A DNA stretch of 57,146 nt, counting the filler, from Basidioascus undulatus (taxonomy: Eukaryota), in NCBI GenBank assembly GCA_000826855.1. It is 4 parts of 4 records of this genome, joined end to end, with 100 filler letters (N's around TTAATTAATTAA, not from the genome) between each part and the next. Parts side by side here need not be neighbours in the genome. Positions count along the whole stretch, not along the records: positions 1 to 14,226 come from JTLS01000749.1; 3 more parts are not named here. One strand, written 5' to 3'. Shown here piece by piece: positions 5,724 through 42,946 of the stretch (positions are counted from its first letter, which is position 1; every line of letters starts with the position of its first letter). The position numbers and the translations under genes were made by a program. Under the pieces are notes generated by a model. It saw only the letters and a program-made list of their open reading frames with translations, was not told the origin of the DNA and did not search any database.

Positions 5724-8012
5724 ATGGCTTCCGACCGTTCGATCGCTTCGCATGACGAGAAGAAGGACGTCCATGATGTTGTTCAGGTTACGGGCCATCT
5801 GCTCCGTCTCAGACGACCAAGGAGCGGCTCTCTGCTGCGTTTACTATCGCGTGCGCGGGCTTCGCACTCATCTCGGATGGTTATCAGAACAACTTGATGG
5901 TGCGTTCATTGTCCTTGTTCCTCAGGCCTTCCACTGGTTTTGATCTATATTCTTCTTTCCCCTCCTCAGACCATGACAAACATGGGTGATGCTATTTCAT
6001 CGAAGGTCTCTCGCTCACGAGGGACCTTTCGCAGGTCGTGTAGGGCAAAATGTATGGGAGCGCACGACACCGCAACCAAGACCCGTGTTAGCAATGCGCT
6101 GCTCGTTGGTGCCATCATCTGGCAGCTCACAGTGTGAGGTTCCAACACCCTACCATCTCCCCAGCCTCTTTCTGACATGTCTTCTTTTAGAGGCTGGATC
6201 TGCGACCGCTTCGGTCGTAAAGTGGCTGTAGGTTGTGTATTCCTCCCGCCAGTGTTCCTGCCTTATAAAACTCCTGCACAGATTGCCGGCGCCATGCTTT
6301 TTACCGTCATTGGAGCCATCATTGGCACGGCTGCGCACGGGGCCAACAGGAGTCTGTCTGGTGAGCCCCCCAGTCTTCATCGACGGACACTGCGAGCACC
6401 CCAAACTGACTTGCCTTCATACAGGATTCTTTTCGGCGATGGCCTTTGCGAGAGGGAAACGGGGACTGTAGTGGGCGGAGAGTATGGTGCATCCTCTACT
6501 GCCGCTGCGGAGGCTGCGAATGAGCGTATGCACAAGCGTGGGTGGAGGCAATGCTTTCGCATCTACAGGACGCTGTGCTGACCTCCAGTTCATGTACAGA
6601 GCGCGGACCGGGTTACATCATGGTCACGAAGTGAGCATTTGTTTCCCAGTATTGCCCTTTGTTATATCAGTCTGACCTTTGAAAAACCAGCTTCACGCTC
6701 TGCTTCGGCGGCCCTCTGGTAGTCTCGATCTTCCTTATCGTGCTCAGCGCAGCCGACGAAGACCATCTCCCCACGGTGTGGCGGACATGGTCAGCCCAAT
6801 GCCATACTTCCTACCACCTACCACCTAGTTCTGACATTCGAAAACCAGCTTCGGCATGGGCATCGTCTTCCCGCTGTCGGTGCTATTCTTCCGCCTACGC
6901 ATGCTCAATAGCGTCCTGTACCATCGCGGTGCAATCAAAAGTGCCTAGAGAGACGCCTACGAGCCCTTCATTTCATTACTTTCCTCCTTTCTTCCTCTAT
7001 AGAACGCTCATGGAACTCTATCCTGTCAGAGCGTGTCCCCTATCGTCTGATCTTCAAGCGCCTTCTCCTGGTTGTGCGACCCACTTTTTCCGGAAAATAG
7101 GTTTAATAGTGAATTCTCACTGTTTAGCCTTTGCGACTTCGTTATGAGATATCCCATTATCAGATCCCCGAGCTCAAATAGCTGACCTTTGCGATTGCTC
7201 CATCCGCAGACGTTGCCTGTGCGTACTCCCACTTCTCTCTGCGCACTTCCCACACCTTTTTCGACAAACCCCAAACAGCCTAACGAGGTTTTTATCCCCA
7301 GAACGGCATATTCAGCGGCACGAACATCTCGAGTGTCGTCAAGCACTCCGACATCAAAAAGACTGCGGAGTGGCAGCTGCTGCTTGGCGCCCTTTCTCTC
7401 CCCGGCGTCTTCGTCGGCGCATGGCTCTGTAACAATATCGGACGGCGCTGGACCATGGTGGCCGGCTTCAGCGGCTATCTTTTTATCAGGCTCATCATCG
7501 GCTGCGCGTATGACAAGGTCACGAAGATCGTGCCGCTCTTGTACGTCCCCTTTTCCCCATATGCGCTCACCTGTATTACATGTACGAAACTAACGAGAAG
7601 GTTGCTTCGCATAGCGTTGTTCTTTATGGTAGGCACCCAACCATGTTTGCGGTTAGCTGTGTAATACAGAAGCTGACGCTTCCCTCTTGCACAGGCTTAA
7701 TGCAGTCCTCCGGCAACGCCGGTAAGTCTCCATGATCCACCCACTTTGAACATGGCGCTCACTTTTGAATCGAACCCTTTCTCCAGGACCCGGGAACATG
7801 ATCAGCCTCACCTCCAGCGAGTCCTTCGCCAGTACGTCTACCCCATCCATCCACTACCCACCCATCCTCCCACCTTTTCCCTCCCTCTCTTTCTCTCCCT
7901 TTCTGAACCACCCCCTCACTCGGCCCAGCGGCCGTCCGCGGCACTTGCTAGCTACGACATCTCCGCCACTGTGGGCAAAGCCGGCACTGGGATCGGGACG
8001 GAGGCTTCCTGA
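5724..8012 (+). pseudogene. GIT1-like MFS glycerophosphodiester permease, decayed and 3'-truncated
   Basis: Motifs across many exons: ISDGYQNNL, RVSNALLVGAI, GWICDRFGRK, VGGEY...AAAEAANE, TVWRT, KTAEWQLLLG, GRRWTM, VGKAG. Frameshift between AMAFARG and TGTVVGGEY (~6455-6462); early TGA at 8010-8012. Confidence 0.7.
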
Positions 8013-8395
8013 CCGTGGAGCGCTCAACATGACCAACAACTCCGGTGTCGCGGTCCTACTTTAACGGTACAACAGCCAGTGCTCTGGAGACTGTGGCGAA
8101 TGGTTAGGGAAGGGAAGCGAAGGCGATGAGAGGCTGGGCACCCGAGAACTAGGAAGAAAACGGGGCTGATACTGGTATCTGGGCCGTGTCGACCCAGGTT
8201 TCCGTAGTACGAATAACAACAAAGGGACAAGGCACGTCTTTGGGGTGTTGCGCCATTGCACGCATCGACGCAGCTTCAACGACAGCGGCCCGTTTCTGCC
8301 GTTCGGGAGACCTCGAGATATCTCACAAGCAGCGCATTTGAAAACTCGTTTGAAATTTTCTACATAAGAAGCTGTCACAGACAATCCTCGTCGTC

Positions 8396-8611
8396 CCCGG
8401 CAAACGGCCGGGAGCGAGCTCGCTCGTGATAAAGTCGCTCGTGCTCCACCCGGGGTCGATCATCGGCTGCTTTTACTCCCCGGACCCGGCCTCCAATTAC
8501 TGCACGTACAACGCTGTCGTAAGCTCCCTACCGTCTTTGCGAGGCGTCTGAGAAGAAGCTGACGGTGATGTGGCGGGATGGGATGGAAAGACGGGGCCGA
8601 GGCGGAGGTGA
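8396..8611 (+). pseudogene. Internal fragment paralogous to the secreted Cys-rich gene at 9058
   Basis: 8408-8518 aligns codon for codon with 9181-9291. Intron 8519-8590 is 70/72 identical to intron 9292-9363. No start codon or signal peptide, and a stop follows soon after the intron. Confidence 0.8.
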
Positions 8612-8812
8612 CGCCGGGACGCTTCCTGTGTTCACATTGGGTAGCAGGCCTGCTCGTCATGCCTCCCTGGGAGGCGTAGCCCTCTCATCCCACCAGACTC
8701 CTCGAGACCTCCTCTTTCCAGCTGGTCCAGCCGTTCTTCCACTTGACCATGGAAATCTCACGTTAGGTCTGGGGCAGGCAAATGGTAGCCGGCTTCTTCT
8801 GAATCTGCCAGC

Positions 8813-8887
8813 CATGCAGTCGCCCCGCCCCGCCAAACATGCAGTCGCCCCGCCCCGCCAAACATGCAGTCGCCCCGCCCCGCCAAA
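8813..8887 (+). repeat. Three tandem copies of a 25-bp unit in a promoter
   Basis: CATGCAGTCGCCCCGCCCCGCCAAA x3, exact. Confidence 0.9.
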
Positions 8888-8923
8888 TATGTCCGCCCCT
8901 TGCGCGTCGAGGTTCGGGCCTTG

Positions 8924-8930
8924 TATAAAA
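8924..8930 (+). promoter_or_regulatory. TATA box of the small secreted protein gene
   Basis: TATAAAA about 130 nt upstream of ATG 9058, followed by a CT-rich leader. Confidence 0.55.
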
Positions 8931-9057
8931 GAGCCGGCTGCACACCTCATTCTCCAGCAAGAAAGCAGCTTCTCACTCATTCTCTTCACTCTCTCGCAGT
9001 CCCTGGCATCAACACCCACCCCCGCCTTCACACAGCCAGCTCCGGCCCTCTATCATC

Positions 9058-9471
9058 ATGCTGACTCGCATCCTCCTCCTCTCCACCGCGGCCTTCGCTC
9101 TCGTCAGTGCCAACCCGCACCAGGACAGGAACGAGGGGAAGCATCCCTCGGTGTGCGCGCGGTGCCCGGCAAAGGGCCCGCCGGGAACGACCTCGCTCGC
9201 TCAAGAGTCGCTCGTGCTCGACCCGGCGCCGATCATCGGCTGCGCTTACTCCCCGGACCCGACCTCCTTTTTCTGCACGTACAACGCTGTCGTAAGCTCC
9301 CTACTGTCTTTGCGAGGCGTCTGAGAAGAAGCTGACGATGATGTGGCGGGATGGGATGGAAAGACGGGGGCGAGGCTTGTGGAGAATGTTCTCTTCACGA
9401 ATACGGAAGGCCTCTTCTTCAACGTTGAGGGCTGTCCGCGTAACGCGGACATCAGCAAGTGCCCGAAGTAG
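9058..9471 (+). CDS. Small secreted cysteine-rich protein (113 aa, 6 Cys), effector-like
   Basis: Signal peptide MLTRILLLSTAAFALVSA; exon 1 9058-9291; intron GTAAGC..GCTGAC..AAG; exon 2 9364-9471 reads TGARLVENVLFTNTEGLFFNVEGCPRNADISKCPK*. Confidence 0.8.
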
Positions 9472-11963
9472 AGCGGGCAGGGGCATCAATGAAGACCGCA
9501 TGATGCAACTTGCAGTCATTGTACATGTCATGTCAGTGCGTTGACGCTGAAGACTGTATTCTTTCCATGTCTGAGTGTTTGGCTAACATCGTCCGCTTGT
9601 TGTCTCTCAGTCTTCCCCTCCTGATCACTGTGTCAATCTCAACTTGAGATCATCTAATTATTTATCAAGCCCCCACTCTAATCACTGCCTGCTTCTCCAC
9701 CTCTCTTGAACCCTCTTCAACCTTCGATTTTCCCACTCTGAATTGTCGTTCGGTTCATCCACATCGTCTTCAGTGTTCACTGTGTGTGCATTGAGCTCTG
9801 CAGTACAGCACTGAGCTCCCATACGGATCCTTCACTGCTACCATTCGTCTCACGATACTACCCCTACGGTCACAGTCCTCTCCCCTATCGTCTCACGATG
9901 CCACAGGTTCCGACCGTTTGCACCCAACCACACGAGCCTAGGCTCCCTTTGGGAGCAGGGAGTGGACCTAGTCGTCTCACGATGCAACCTACCTTAGGGA
10001 GCTTGTCACAGCTACAGCGAGCAGCCCCCCTCTGAGCTGCTCTGGTACTACAGTACCAACCCATGAATTGCAAGCTCTCGTATTGTTTTGCAGAAACTGT
10101 CTATACCAATTAGCATAACCTGGATGACTCAGGCTTGTACGTCACGTGCTGGTTCTTGTGTGACTCTGAGCTCAGTCTGTCTTGACTTTTCAGGTGGAAA
10201 GAAACTGTGCGAATGATACTGCACACATTGGATTTTTCCCTTCTGTTGCTGCACTTGCCCCGAGGCATGGACGATTGCCATTTGCAGTGCTAGAGTTCTG
10301 CTCAGAGTATGCGGAATTGTCCAAGAAAGGAAAACAAGTCCTAAGTTCTGGGAAGGGACCAAGGCACAAGACATCAGATACAAGACTGAAGGATATATAG
10401 CTTTTCATAACCAGGAAAGCTAACCAGTTCTGCAAGTTCGGGAAATATTCCCTGAAACGGCGTTATACAGCAACAGCTTTTGCTAGACTTGCGAGGCTCA
10501 CCACTGACATGCGAAAGCAGCTTCCCTTCAACCAACAAGCTGGACCTCCGCATTGCCTCGATTAATTTGAAGAGCTTCTCAAAACTTAGGAAGAGTACTG
10601 CAATGACGCTGCTCAAACTCTAATGAGGTGTTGAGCCTGATCGAATCGTCGATCCACCGCAGTCATTTGAAGGCTGCTGGCATGCCCACGCTGGTTTGCT
10701 CGCATTGCATTTCAAACTGCCTTTCTACCGGCTCCATGTGTTTCCGGCCCCCCGCCTTTAGCTCTTTTTCCGAGGTCTATTCGTATTGCTATATTTTCAG
10801 TAAGTGTACCTACCGCCCCTGGTCTCCGACGCCGACCAACCCTTCCTGCCCGCTCAATCCACCATCTCCCTCCCACCGGCTGCACCCCCCTCGCTCGCAC
10901 CATGCCGGTCCTTGCACAAACGAGGGAGTCTCACGCTTTCAAAGAGGACGAGAAGCATCATCCTCCTACCCGCTGGAGGGGTGTGGTGGGACGACTTGCG
11001 TCTCTGGGGGCGCGGAAGGGGCGGGCACGTGAAGGGAGACTCGACGTCGCTCGATGCTGGACCGGAGCTAGGCGAAGAGCAGGGGGCTGAGGCGGTGGAT
11101 TTGGAGGTACCCCCAGAACAAGATGTGGATTGGCCGAAGTATCTATACGGGCTTTCGGAAAGCAGCTGCTGAACGGGGGGGTTCTGGGCAGAGCCTCTAC
11201 AGCGTGCACCACGCTTTCAATGACGACGAAGCTTCGATCCACACGGCCCGACGAATCAGTCTATCTCCAAACAGCCGTTCATCCAGACCCTCTCCACCAA
11301 CCTCCATCCACTGCCCGCTCCCCCATCAGCGCTCGCTTTCTTTGTCCTATAAGAGTCAGTCCGCCATCGGACGTCGGGCGTACTTGCTGCAGCTGAGACG
11401 ACAGCTGGAAGTTCATCTTGCTCAGCCTGCGATCAGTACCTGGCGGGCACCCGCGCGACACTGAACCCCCCGTGTTCGCGCTAAAACTTGCGCGGCTTCT
11501 GTATGTGTCCTACCGAATGGTAGCCTCCTTAGTGCACACACCCGACGCATCCGCACACCTCCTCCCAGTCGCACTCAGCAAAAACAGCACAAAGCACACA
11601 TTAACACGCTCGCAGCGTAGCATTTTGGGGGTGTGTAGGCAACGCGTAGGCAGGCAACATCGGCGGGCGGGGCGTAAGACGGGGGCGGGGCGTAATCGAG
11701 TGCGGTGGACGGGACGAACGTGAACAGGGGGACAGGAAAACGGGAGGGCAGGAGAGCGGATAACACAACAACAGACGGGCGGGAACGGACGGATGCGAAG
11801 AGTGGAGGAGGGGTATGTGGGGCGGTATCTGATCTGAGCGCGCGAAGACATGCGTGGAATGTAACGAGGGGAAATCGAATGGGAAAAAGGGGGAAAGCGA
11901 AAGGTCCGGCTGGGCCTGACGAGAGAAGAGAGAGAAGAGGTGTGGGGCAGGGGATGGGAGAGA

Positions 11964-14226: not shown

Positions 14227-14326
14227 NNNNNNNNNNNNNNNNNNNNNNNNNNNNNNNNNNNNNNNNNNNNTTAATTAATTAANNNNNNNNNNNNNNNNNN
14301 NNNNNNNNNNNNNNNNNNNNNNNNNN
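14227..14326. other. Artificial contig spacer
   Basis: N44-TTAATTAATTAA-N44, with stops in all six frames. Confidence 0.97.
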
Positions 14327-17300
14327 TGGGGGAGGGACGGAGGCGGTGGCATCGAGGGGGGAGGAGAGGAGGACGAGCTGCAGGGCCCAAAGAAGTCAGC
14401 CTTCTGCAAGACACGGCCGCGTGAAAGTGGGAAGTGGCTTACGGAAAGACGGAGCAGAGTAGGGGTTCGCATTCGACCGGCCGCCGCCTGAGTAAAGGCT
14501 CGCCGGCGGCGGCATGTACGGGTTGCTGCCGCCGCGCGGCGGGCCGAAGAGGCCGGGCACGTAGTCGTCGAGCTTGATGAGTTGGTTGTTGCTGAGGGGT
14601 TCGAACACATTTGTCAGCGAGGGAGCCGCGAATGCAGTTGCGTGGGGAGGCAGAAAAAACGCACTGTCGGCGCATACACATGTCCCTGTCGACGGTGATG
14701 ATCCTGTTGGCGGCATGGAGCTCTACGCGGACCTGCCCGCCATTCGTGCCCTTGATGATGCCGATCATGCCCTTGTGCGTGCCGCGGATGATCTGGACGG
14801 GCGCGTTCTCGAGCCGGTCGCGCTCGCCGCCGCGGCCCATCATCGACGAGCCGACCATGCCGCCGCGCTCGGCGTTCGGGTTCAGCGGCGCGAGCGCGGG
14901 GTTCATCCGGCTCAGGTCCGGCCCCGCCGCGCTGGCGCCGTTGCCGAGCGCCTTGGGCGCGACGGACGCGAGCGAGCGCGCGCGCGTGACGAACACGCCG
15001 CCGTTCTCGGAGATCTCGCGGTTGTGGAGGAAGGCGAACTGCGAGCGGTAGATGTGCAGGACTTGGCCTTTCCGACCCTGAGGCAGCGCAGCAAACGCGG
15101 TCAGTCATAACGCAGGGAGACGGTTGCCGGACAGCGATGGAACGCACCTCGCCCTCGATCTCCTTCACCATGTCCCCAATGCGCATCTCGTGGCCCGTAG
15201 AGTCCGTAGCGACGGCACGGCGCGAGTCCCGGCGCATGCTGATCTGCCGCGGCCCGACGACGCGAACAGAGCCATTCTGGTCGAGCACGCGGAAGGTGTT
15301 GTGCTCGGTCTTGAAGATAACACCCGCCGTCTGCTGGCTGTGATTTGGCAGTACACTGTCAGCTGAGCAAGGCAGTGAAGGAGAATTGAACCCACTCGAG
15401 TTGGACAAGGTCGTGCAGCTCGTAGTCGCCCACAGTGTTCGTGCTCGCGCCAATCTCAGCCGCCTCGCGGACGTCCTTCGCAAACACGGTAACCTGCGAA
15501 GCGCCACGCAATAAGTGAGCACGCGTCTCCCGGGACTCGAGCTGCCGAACGAACACACCTCGGTTTGAGACAAGTCGGACATGAGCGTGACGGTATTGCC
15601 GTCGGTCGCGACGACCAGACCCGTCTCGTCGACGTTCTTGCCGGCCATGACCTTGACGTGGGCGCCCGGCTTGAAGCGCTTCCGGATGCTCCGTGCCTGG
15701 ACCTCGACGAGCTGCTCGTCGAGGTCGGTCGCTTCGAGGCGGGCGCGGATGGTGACGACGTCGCCGCGGATGGTCTCGACGGTGCCGTCGATGCCTGCCT
15801 GCTCGCCCTCGAAGACCTCGACGTGGTCGCCGGGCTGGAGAACGGCGGTGGAGGCCTTGCGGGACGCCTCGGCGATGACGCTGAGGTCGAACTCGGTCGC
15901 GTTCGGCATGCCCGTCCCGTCGCGGTCGCCGCCCGTGAAGCGGGTGATCTCGTCGAGGGTCGGGTTGACGTCCTCGGTCTGCAGCCCTGAGATCTTGATG
16001 TCCTTCTCAATGAAGCCGTCCTTGAACGTGTCGCCCTGGAAGACGTAGCTGTTGCCGCGCTTGACGCTGCTCCGCGCGCCGTACACCTTGATCACGTCCG
16101 CGTGCGAGTACAGCCGCTGCGGCGGGCGGAACGCGATCGCCTGGCTCGACCCGCCGGCGGCGCCTGCGCCCTTCTTCCGCTTCTTGCCGTCCGAGCCCGT
16201 GAACGTGTTGTCGTCCTTCGGGTTGAGGTCGATGCGCGGGACGAACTTGACTCCAGCGATGTCGCCGTTCTCTGTGACGTCCATGACCTGCGCGAGGTCG
16301 CCCGCGTACTTCCCGCGCTTGATGCGTACCCACGTGCCGGGGACGAGCTCGACCGTCTGCTTCTTGATCTTGAGCAGGTCCGCCATCTCGTCGATCGGCA
16401 CGAGGACAAAGCCGCGCGAGGGGTACACGCCGACGAGGCCGTTGATCGCGTTCGTGACGTGCGCCTGCGAGCGCGCCTCGATGTAGATCATGCCCGAGAG
16501 CGAGTCGCGGCAGAAGGCGGAGATGAAGTCGAGCGGCTTGGAGGTGTACTCGACGTCGAGGAACTTGCGCATCAGCGAGAAGACGAGGTCGCGCTCGCGG
16601 CCAGGCTACACCATCCCATCAGTCCACCAGCGTCAGCACCATGTCCACAGGTCCTGCAAGATCCGCCTTCTTGATCGGATCGCCAGCCCATTGCCCCACT
16701 CCCGCCCTCCACAGCCCCAGCCCAAGAAGTCAAGTCACTGACCTTGCACCGCACGCCCCAAATGTTGGCGTCGTTCACACTGGGCATGAGCAGCCGCTGA
16801 GGGATCTGGTCGACGTCGCCCTGGTAGCGCATGCCCATGCGGCCGTAGCGCTCCTTGAGCTCCTCGGCGACCTTCTCCGCGTCGCGGTCCTCCATCTCGC
16901 GGTGGCGGCGGTCGAGGCGCGTGTGCTCGTTCCGCCCCGCGCGCCCGATCGGCTCGTCCATCTCGGGACGGTCCTCAATGAAGCCCTCCGCTGTGGGAGA
17001 GAAAGCGTGCGGGTCAGTGGCAGTGGGCGGGATGGGATGGGGAGGGTGAAAGACGCACCGTCTCGCCCGAGCTCCTCCTCGTCCTCCTCCATCTCCTCAT
17101 CCTCATCGTCGACCTAGGAGGGTTGACAGAGGGATGAGCGAACAGCCTAAGCGGTGATAGTAAGATGGCACAGCGTACCTCGGCTTCGACATCGAGGAAG
17201 CGGTTCCGCTTGTTCTTGCGACGGCGCTTCCGTCCCGCCCGTCCATCGTCTTCGTCTTCGTCTTCCTCGTCCTCCTCATCGTCCTCCTCATCCTCATCTT

Positions 17301-17633
17301 CCTCCTCGTCCTCTTCCTCTTCATCCTCGCCTCCTCTCACGCCATCCTCCTGGACGCGCTCGTCCTCGCTGCCCTCGTCCTCCTGAAGGAATGGAAGCCG
17401 GTATCAAAGACAGGCGGAGACGAGGTGGCGAGGGATGGGAGAGGGTGGCGGAGGGTTCAAAGAGCATGCAAAGAAGGCCCGAATGTCAGATAGAGCATAA
17501 GCAGTAAGAAGTAAGGGATGTGGCGGACGTCTCTGGGCCGCCTGGGAGCGGGCGCGGTCTGAGGCTCGTCCGAGTCCGAGTCCGAGTCGTACGGGTCGCG
17601 CTTCGGGGAGCGCTCAACAGGCGAGCTCGACAT
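14327..17633 (-). CDS. SPT5: Transcription elongation factor Spt5 (3' end runs to the contig edge)
   Basis: Acidic N-terminus, [38 protein letters not shown] (NGN domain), GMIYIEA, and KOW motifs ([53 protein letters not shown]). Confidence 0.97.
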
Positions 17634-28542: not shown

Positions 28543-28642
28543 NNNNNNNNNNNNNNNNNNNNNNNNNNNNNNNNNNNNNNNNNNNNTTAATTAATTAANN
28601 NNNNNNNNNNNNNNNNNNNNNNNNNNNNNNNNNNNNNNNNNN
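28543..28642. other. Artificial contig spacer
   Basis: N44-TTAATTAATTAA-N44. Confidence 0.97.
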
Positions 28643-42846: not shown

Positions 42847-42946
42847 NNNNNNNNNNNNNNNNNNNNNNNNNNNNNNNNNNNNNNNNNNNNTTAATTAATT
42901 AANNNNNNNNNNNNNNNNNNNNNNNNNNNNNNNNNNNNNNNNNNNN
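42847..42946. other. Artificial contig spacer
   Basis: N44-TTAATTAATTAA-N44. Confidence 0.97.

Follow-up and report, generated by a model that had tools for sequence, protein, structure and literature searches.

An expressed orphan gene for a small cysteine-rich protein and its transcribed partial duplicate in Basidioascus undulatus: clustered divergence with a nominal and fragile signal of diversifying selection

The window, by which we mean the whole stretch of Basidioascus undulatus DNA that was analysed (57,146 nt), contains fungal genes for Spt5, ribosomal protein L31e, AMP deaminase, Iml2/TPR39 and Scm3, and a sugar-transporter-type exon lies directly upstream of the locus described here. 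The best protein matches of the Spt5 open frame were from Agaricomycetes (51–61% identity), and a conserved exon of AMP deaminase was 85–90% identical to sequences from Agaricomycetes compared to 72–75% for Pucciniomycotina, indicating that the host is a basidiomycete whose close relatives are absent from the protein collection. A low-complexity, TCC/TCG-rich repeat at 17061–17342 (plus strand) matches the acidic N-terminal part of Spt5, whose gene is on the minus strand. The window also carries six runs of 44 N, arranged as three pairs approximately 14.3 kb apart (14227–14326, 28543–28642 and 42847–42946), which are not biological features.

Three sequencing runs cover the locus: X1 (2014) and X2 (2025), which come from two studies and possibly represent the same strain, and X3, which derives from the same sample as X2 and is tentatively labelled as DNA. 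Contigs from X1 and X2 are genome-like and identical to the window at the locus, with X2 cover absent at 8540–8795. We infer that X3 is derived from RNA, because its contigs contain three skips bounded by GT..AG that have no counterpart in X1 or X2; X3 contigs are absent over 8156–8486 and 8868–8983, and these gaps carry no evidential weight. A short dispersed repeat at 8078–8173 shows approximately twofold depth in X1 and X2. Contigs from other places in the genome (1,686, 6,702 and 22,571 nt) overlap it by 46–59 nt with one mismatch and then diverge from the window, and Rfam returned no match for this repeat.

The gene at 9058–9471 on the plus strand is an expressed, spliced orphan gene for a small protein with six cysteines that is putatively secreted. 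The coding part of exon 1 (9058–9291) comprises 78 codons beginning with the ATG at 9058, and that of exon 2 (9364–9471) comprises 35 codons and a stop; both are supported by translation and by a single 600-nt X3 contig that spans 8984–9291, 9364–9531 and 9628–9733. The existence of this gene, which had been predicted from the sequence, is borne out by the splice joint 9291>9364 (shorter side 168 letters), which removes exactly the 72-nt GT..AG intron at 9292–9363, and this intron carries a branch-point-like CTGAC motif. The same mRNA has a second GT..AG intron in its 3' untranslated region (9532–9610), beginning 60 nt past the stop codon. It is represented by the joint 9531>9628, where 18 letters are interposed that correspond to 9611–9627 and one extra T. 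The extra T, between 9627 and 9628, is absent from the window and from the X1 and X2 contigs.

The spliced product is 113 aa long with cysteines at positions 33, 36, 62, 73, 102 and 111, and the GC content at third codon positions is 0.83. Judged by eye, the N-terminus resembles a signal peptide, starting with M-L-T-R with a basic R4, continuing through a hydrophobic core, and ending in V-S-A before N19. The putative signal peptide would thus occupy the first 18 codons (9058–9111), giving a mature protein of approximately 95 aa. With 113 aa and six cysteines, the product falls within the size and cysteine limits (below about 300 aa, at least four cysteines) of the small secreted cysteine-rich proteins or candidate effectors, a class that is defined operationally. 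Pfam searches with the exon-1 and exon-2 products, each searched separately, found no family at E≤10, and the open reading frames near the gene likewise had no Pfam match. An AlphaFold2 model of the exon-1 product alone, built with no alignment, reached a mean pLDDT of 58.3 and a pTM of 0.41, which is too poor for mapping variable sites.

Upstream of the gene, a TATAAAA motif at 8924–8930 (plus strand) lies 54 nt before 8984, the first base of the mRNA contig, which is a contig end and not a mapped transcription start. Further upstream is a GC-box-like tandem repeat of 3.2 copies of a 25-nt unit at 8813–8891 (98% matches, score 151). The run CCCCGCCCCGCC occurs in every unit, and the units may be reiterated binding sites of a zinc-finger regulator. 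Within this repeat, an additional C follows 8847 in one X2 contig. A stop-free frame of 270 codons at 8523–9335 (plus strand) runs across the fragment intron described below, the intergenic DNA and, in another frame, the gene; it had no Pfam match, and we interpret it as a consequence of high G+C content.

Searches for relatives returned the gene and one partial copy of it. Neither blastn and tblastn nor a repeat search found further copies in the window, and no X1 or X2 contig from elsewhere in the genome matched the gene at 80% likeness. A word-index protein search with the exon-1 product gave no matches, and HMMER against 1.84 billion representative proteins gave four at E≤0.001, all of them long repeat proteins aligned through short repeated stretches; three of the four were inspected and judged unrelated. 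Among metagenome contigs, 594 stretches matched by pattern and none was confirmed by tblastn, and an exact 30-nt intron pattern had no match. The best ESM Atlas cluster, a 93-aa hypothetical protein from Basidiomycota, scored 0.88, where 0.9 is the threshold for more than a lead, and an Rfam search of 7800–10000 at E≤1 found nothing. A literature search for fungal effectors with introns more conserved than their exons yielded nothing directly relevant among the matches listed. The original prediction had placed the gene in a rapidly evolving effector family. A multigene family comprises several paralogs, and across the window, the X1 and X2 contigs at 80% likeness, and the protein and metagenome searches we found one gene and one fragment, so that these searches lend the proposed family no support.

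The fragment, at 8393–8603 on the plus strand, is a non-coding partial duplicate of 9162–9376 identified by local alignment (211 bp), and the two form the sole long direct repeat in the window. It contains codons 36–78 (the last 43 of exon 1), the intron in full, and the first 13 nt of exon 2, a stretch with one difference at whose end the homology stops. Its exon-like part, 37 ghost codons at 8408–8518, aligns ungapped with 9181–9291 at an offset of 773 nt, and its intron copy at 8519–8590 is identical to the gene intron at 70 of 72 positions. Near the 5' end, 9174–9177 of the gene are missing from the fragment, and with this 4-nt indel the frame is no longer in register with the Cys36 codon. 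Read in the gene's frame, the fragment has a stop at 8351–8353 and no in-frame ATG thereafter, and past the intron its frame continues for six codons (TGPRRR) before a stop. The lack of a start codon and of a signal-peptide part, together with the indel and the early stop, means that the fragment cannot make the protein or encode a paralog. As a truncated, intron-bearing copy with a disrupted frame and no start codon, it is an unprocessed pseudogene fragment.

It had been proposed that the upstream copy is a dead paralog, and the impossibility of coding agrees with this, but the edges of the 211-bp block argue against a full-length copy that was later trimmed. A once-functional tandem copy that diverged under diversifying selection and then lost sequence on both sides would account for the excess of residue-changing differences reported below, and for a ghost frame that is open over 37 codons with both cysteines kept. 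The open frame itself says little, since 51–74% of simulations kept it open after 16 random changes. Moreover, two separate deletions would have had to stop precisely at the two borders of the block while silent sites remained 97% identical, and neither the signal-peptide part nor the remainder of exon 2 has left a trace near the fragment, with blastn and tblastn aligning nothing outside the block formed by 8393–8603 and 9162–9376. We therefore regard a trimmed paralog as quite unlikely.

The fragment had also been described as promoterless and silent, which the RNA contigs contradict. One X3 contig joins the 32 letters of 8487–8518 to 8591–8842 across a GT..AG skip of 72 nt with no other letters, and this joint indicates transcription of the fragment and removal of its intron. 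The transcribed stretch downstream of the fragment intron, 8591–8867 on the plus strand, is represented by X3 contigs at 8591–8842 (a 284-nt record) and 8813–8867; it extends into the upstream region of the gene, and the contigs do not define the RNA ends. The contig is unlikely to be a chimera of transcripts from the gene and the fragment, because across the splice joint the two copies have only 25 bases in common, fewer than the 31-letter word of the assembler. The fragment is an ordinary partial duplicate, and its transcription and splicing are its mildly unusual trait.

A collapsed or chimeric assembly could in principle have produced the duplicate or its nearly identical intron, and the X1 and X2 contigs do break within both intron copies (8529/8567 and 9302/9340). 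These breaks arise from words common to both copies that exceed the word size of the assembler. Both junctions of the fragment are nevertheless spanned with no other letters: on the left, a 402-nt contig in X1 and X2 links unique upstream DNA to the exon-like part, and on the right, contigs of 276 nt (X1) and 284 nt (X3) link the 3' end of the fragment to unique DNA past 8603, the spliced X3 contig in addition linking 8487–8518 to 8591–8842. Local misassembly is therefore unlikely as the cause of the intron identity, and we consider an artefactual origin of the duplicate extremely improbable.

Comparison of the two copies reproduced exactly the counts of divergence that had been noted. Between 8408–8518 and 9181–9291, 16 of 111 bases and 12 of 37 codons differ, and all 12 changed codons alter the residue (A/T, S/T, V/A, I/Q, K/E, H/D, G/A, S/P, F/A, A/T, N/F and Y/F). 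Both cysteine codons within the alignment are kept and no codon differs only synonymously. The 72-nt introns, in contrast to the exon parts, have two differences (8532 and 8565). Because the GTG/GCT codon includes a third-position change, the Nei-Gojobori method counts one synonymous and 15 non-synonymous differences (Sd=1, Nd=15) over 28.5 synonymous and 82.5 non-synonymous sites, giving dN 0.208, dS 0.036 and an omega of approximately 5.8, for one unpolarised gene/fragment pair of 37 codons with no outgroup. Exon divergence exceeded intron divergence with a Fisher probability of 0.010 when each base was treated as independent, and non-synonymous compared to all silent sites gave p of about 0.001 when every base was counted. 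In neutral simulations of 16 random substitutions (20,000 per setting), Sd≤1 occurred in 1.7–4.9% of cases and an alignment with no purely synonymous codon in 1.9–4.5%.

Taken together with a gene that is expressed and spliced and whose product is composed like a secreted cysteine-rich protein, these values could reflect an adaptive burst, in which the fragment would be a nearly unchanged neutral fossil (approximately 3% silent divergence) and strong positive selection on the gene would have exchanged as many as 12 of 37 residues between Cys36 and Cys73, as in effectors, toxins and recognition proteins. We consider this possible but doubtful. The comparison of dN with dS alone gave a Fisher probability of 0.067. 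The differences are clustered, with five adjacent pairs (P=0.043) and two changes in four of the 12 altered codons, and when adjacent changes were merged into approximately 10 single events, the probability for exon versus intron rose to 0.13–0.16. The changes showed no significant avoidance of Cys, Gly, Pro or aromatic residues, with p between 0.06 and 1.0 according to which class was used, no family or second allele was found on which selection could be tested, and a pattern with a chance of about one in thirty is expected repeatedly when many windows are scanned. RIP-like mutation was considered and rejected, as transversions make up 10 of the 16 exon differences, and folding z-scores of −0.69 and −0.88 for the introns gave no sign of a structured RNA that would account for their conservation. 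The non-synonymous excess is real, and it is significant only when every base change is taken as independent. Of the strong diversifying selection that had been proposed, an omega nominally above 1 stands, but in one pair of 37 codons it is fragile once clustered changes are merged; the signal is nominal, and the evidence is too thin to demonstrate selection.

The position at which divergence changes also departs from what the adaptive account would lead one to expect. In a two-rate model the best break fell at 8499/8500 (lnL −56.10), which is 19 nt inside the exon, compared to −58.76 for a break at the exon/intron border and −62.39 for a single rate. From 8500 to 8603, 101 of 104 bases are identical (97%), and this low-divergence tract includes the last 19 bases of the exon, all identical, and 12 of the first 13 bases of exon 2, so that it exceeds the intron at both ends. 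Divergence also declines steadily toward the 3' end of the block: mismatches counted from 5' to 3' in blocks of approximately 40 nt were 9 plus the indel, 5, 4, 1 and 2, the last block being 51 nt long. A tract that overruns the intron in this way would look like a gene-conversion tract or a gradient of copying errors. A recent conversion tract limited to the intron had been named as a way in which the argument from intron identity could fail, and a conversion origin is plausible for the tract seen here, which runs past both intron borders. The 19 invariant bases at the end of the exon encode C-T-Y-N-A-V, which may be constrained in the protein, and the change-point is thus no proof of conversion.

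The layout of the locus resembles that of antigenic-variation systems, in which the fragment would be a silent donor cassette. Its variant sequence would pass to the gene through gene conversion, and the conserved intron would serve as homology anchor. A variable coding segment does lie beside a 104-nt tract of 97% identity (8500–8603), in the same orientation and 773 bp upstream of an expressed copy. Against this, homology on the 5' side is poor, with a 4-nt indel and dense mismatches, so that there is no flanking homology on both sides; a single cassette was found and not an array; and the fragment is transcribed, hence not silent. Contigs from X1 and X2 had no other letter over 8858–9302, which includes the variable part of the gene, although the two runs may come from one strain and contigs drop rare variants. 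A donor role is accordingly very improbable.

Some of the clustered differences may instead have arisen by templated mutation. The differences at 8414 and 8418 complete the arms of a 14-nt perfect palindrome at 8412–8425 that is present in the fragment only, the gene copy pairing at five of seven arm positions. Random substitutions created such a palindrome in 0.7% of 50,000 simulations, and palindromes of at least 14 nt number nine in 57 kb, or 0.0175 per 111 nt. Two reports describe template switching between imperfect inverted repeats that homogenises the arms and yields multi-nucleotide mutations (PMC8604942, PMC5453318), and a third describes multinucleotide mutations as nearly always non-synonymous and a known source of false signals of selection (10.1101/165969). 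The palindrome at 8412–8425 carries the signature of a template switch, suggesting that the changes at 8414 and 8418 arose in the non-coding copy, which weighs against the adaptive account. No template was found within 8330–8680 for the clusters at 8427–8432 and 8495–8499. In the gene copy alone, the differences at 9227 and 9229 create an 8-nt perfect palindrome, CGGCGCCG, at 9224–9231. Palindromes as short as this abound in the window (0.50 of 8 nt per 111 nt), and since this one lies in the gene, palindromes do not polarise all of the changes.

The reading that we prefer, with moderate confidence, is that the fragment is a non-coding copy in neutral decay, whose divergence reflects clustered or templated mutation and a conversion-like, mixed history. 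A single event would have copied 211 bp of the gene to a site 773 bp upstream, and the copy would then have decayed neutrally, partly through multi-nucleotide and template-switch mutations. The concentration of differences in the 5' two-thirds of the copy, with very few from 8500 onward, is suggestive of such a mixed history, in which the 3' half may have been copied more faithfully or may later have been homogenised with the gene by gene conversion. The copy is situated in transcribed DNA, and its intact splice signals account for the removal of its intron from the RNA. The sharp ends of the homology, the frameshifting indel, the absence of an in-frame ATG and the stop six codons past the intron are consistent with neutral decay, as are the change-point at 8499/8500, the five adjacent pairs, the four two-hit codons among 12, and the palindrome at 8412–8425. 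Several observations weigh on the other side: so few synonymous changes are unusual under neutrality (1.7–4.9% of simulations), the comparison of non-synonymous with silent sites gave p of about 0.001, constraint on C-T-Y-N-A-V could explain the identical last 19 exon bases, the palindrome made by 9227 and 9229 is in the gene and not in the fragment, and no site is polarised as a change in the gene or the fragment.

A more elaborate scenario, which we think unlikely, combines the adaptive account with the RNA evidence. The fragment would have frozen the ancestral sequence, and the gene would since have replaced about one third of its central-loop residues while silent sites diverged by approximately 3%. 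The fragment would meanwhile have been co-opted to provide a spliced non-coding RNA with its first exon and intron, and this RNA would read through the repeat-bearing upstream region and tune expression of the gene. If an adaptive burst did take place, it would be among the steepest in fungal secreted proteins, and the adjoining ancestral snapshot would polarise the substitutions without a phylogeny. The significance of the locus is mainly as a caution, in that a pattern of exclusively non-synonymous change beside an unchanged intron, seen in one pair of 37 codons, can come from clustered or templated mutations and a patchy history of conversion.

The gene resembles fungal small secreted cysteine-rich proteins in its signal-peptide-like N-terminus, mature length of approximately 95 aa, six cysteines, lack of a Pfam domain and of detectable relatives, and expression. 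Unlike fungal effectors of this kind, it is situated among housekeeping genes (Spt5, L31e, AMP deaminase and Scm3) and not in a repeat-rich compartment, and it is a candidate effector on the basis of sequence and expression. In venom toxin gene families such as the three-finger toxins, introns are conserved and exon segments are reported to be accelerated or switched ('ASSET'; PMC2474615, PMC2711939, PMC3862624). The two copies here are similar to the toxins in that their introns are highly alike, short exon segments differ sharply and the cysteine framework is kept. The toxins, however, are multigene families of complete expressed genes, compared to one gene and one non-coding fragment at this locus. 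Also comparable are the multinucleotide and template-switch mutations that mimic positive selection (10.1101/165969, PMC5453318, PMC8604942), with which the locus shares adjacent changes in clusters, codons hit twice and a quasi-palindrome perfected by two differences. It differs from those systems in that a clear template fits one cluster only, accounting for two of the 16 differences. In yeast, upstream non-coding transcription at SRG1 acts on the neighbouring SER3 promoter; at the fragment locus, unlike SRG1-SER3, RNA contigs are what was seen, and a regulatory effect on the gene would be an analogy. As with transcribed unprocessed pseudogene fragments, a truncated, intron-bearing copy here gives rise to a spliced RNA that heads toward the promoter region of its parent gene.
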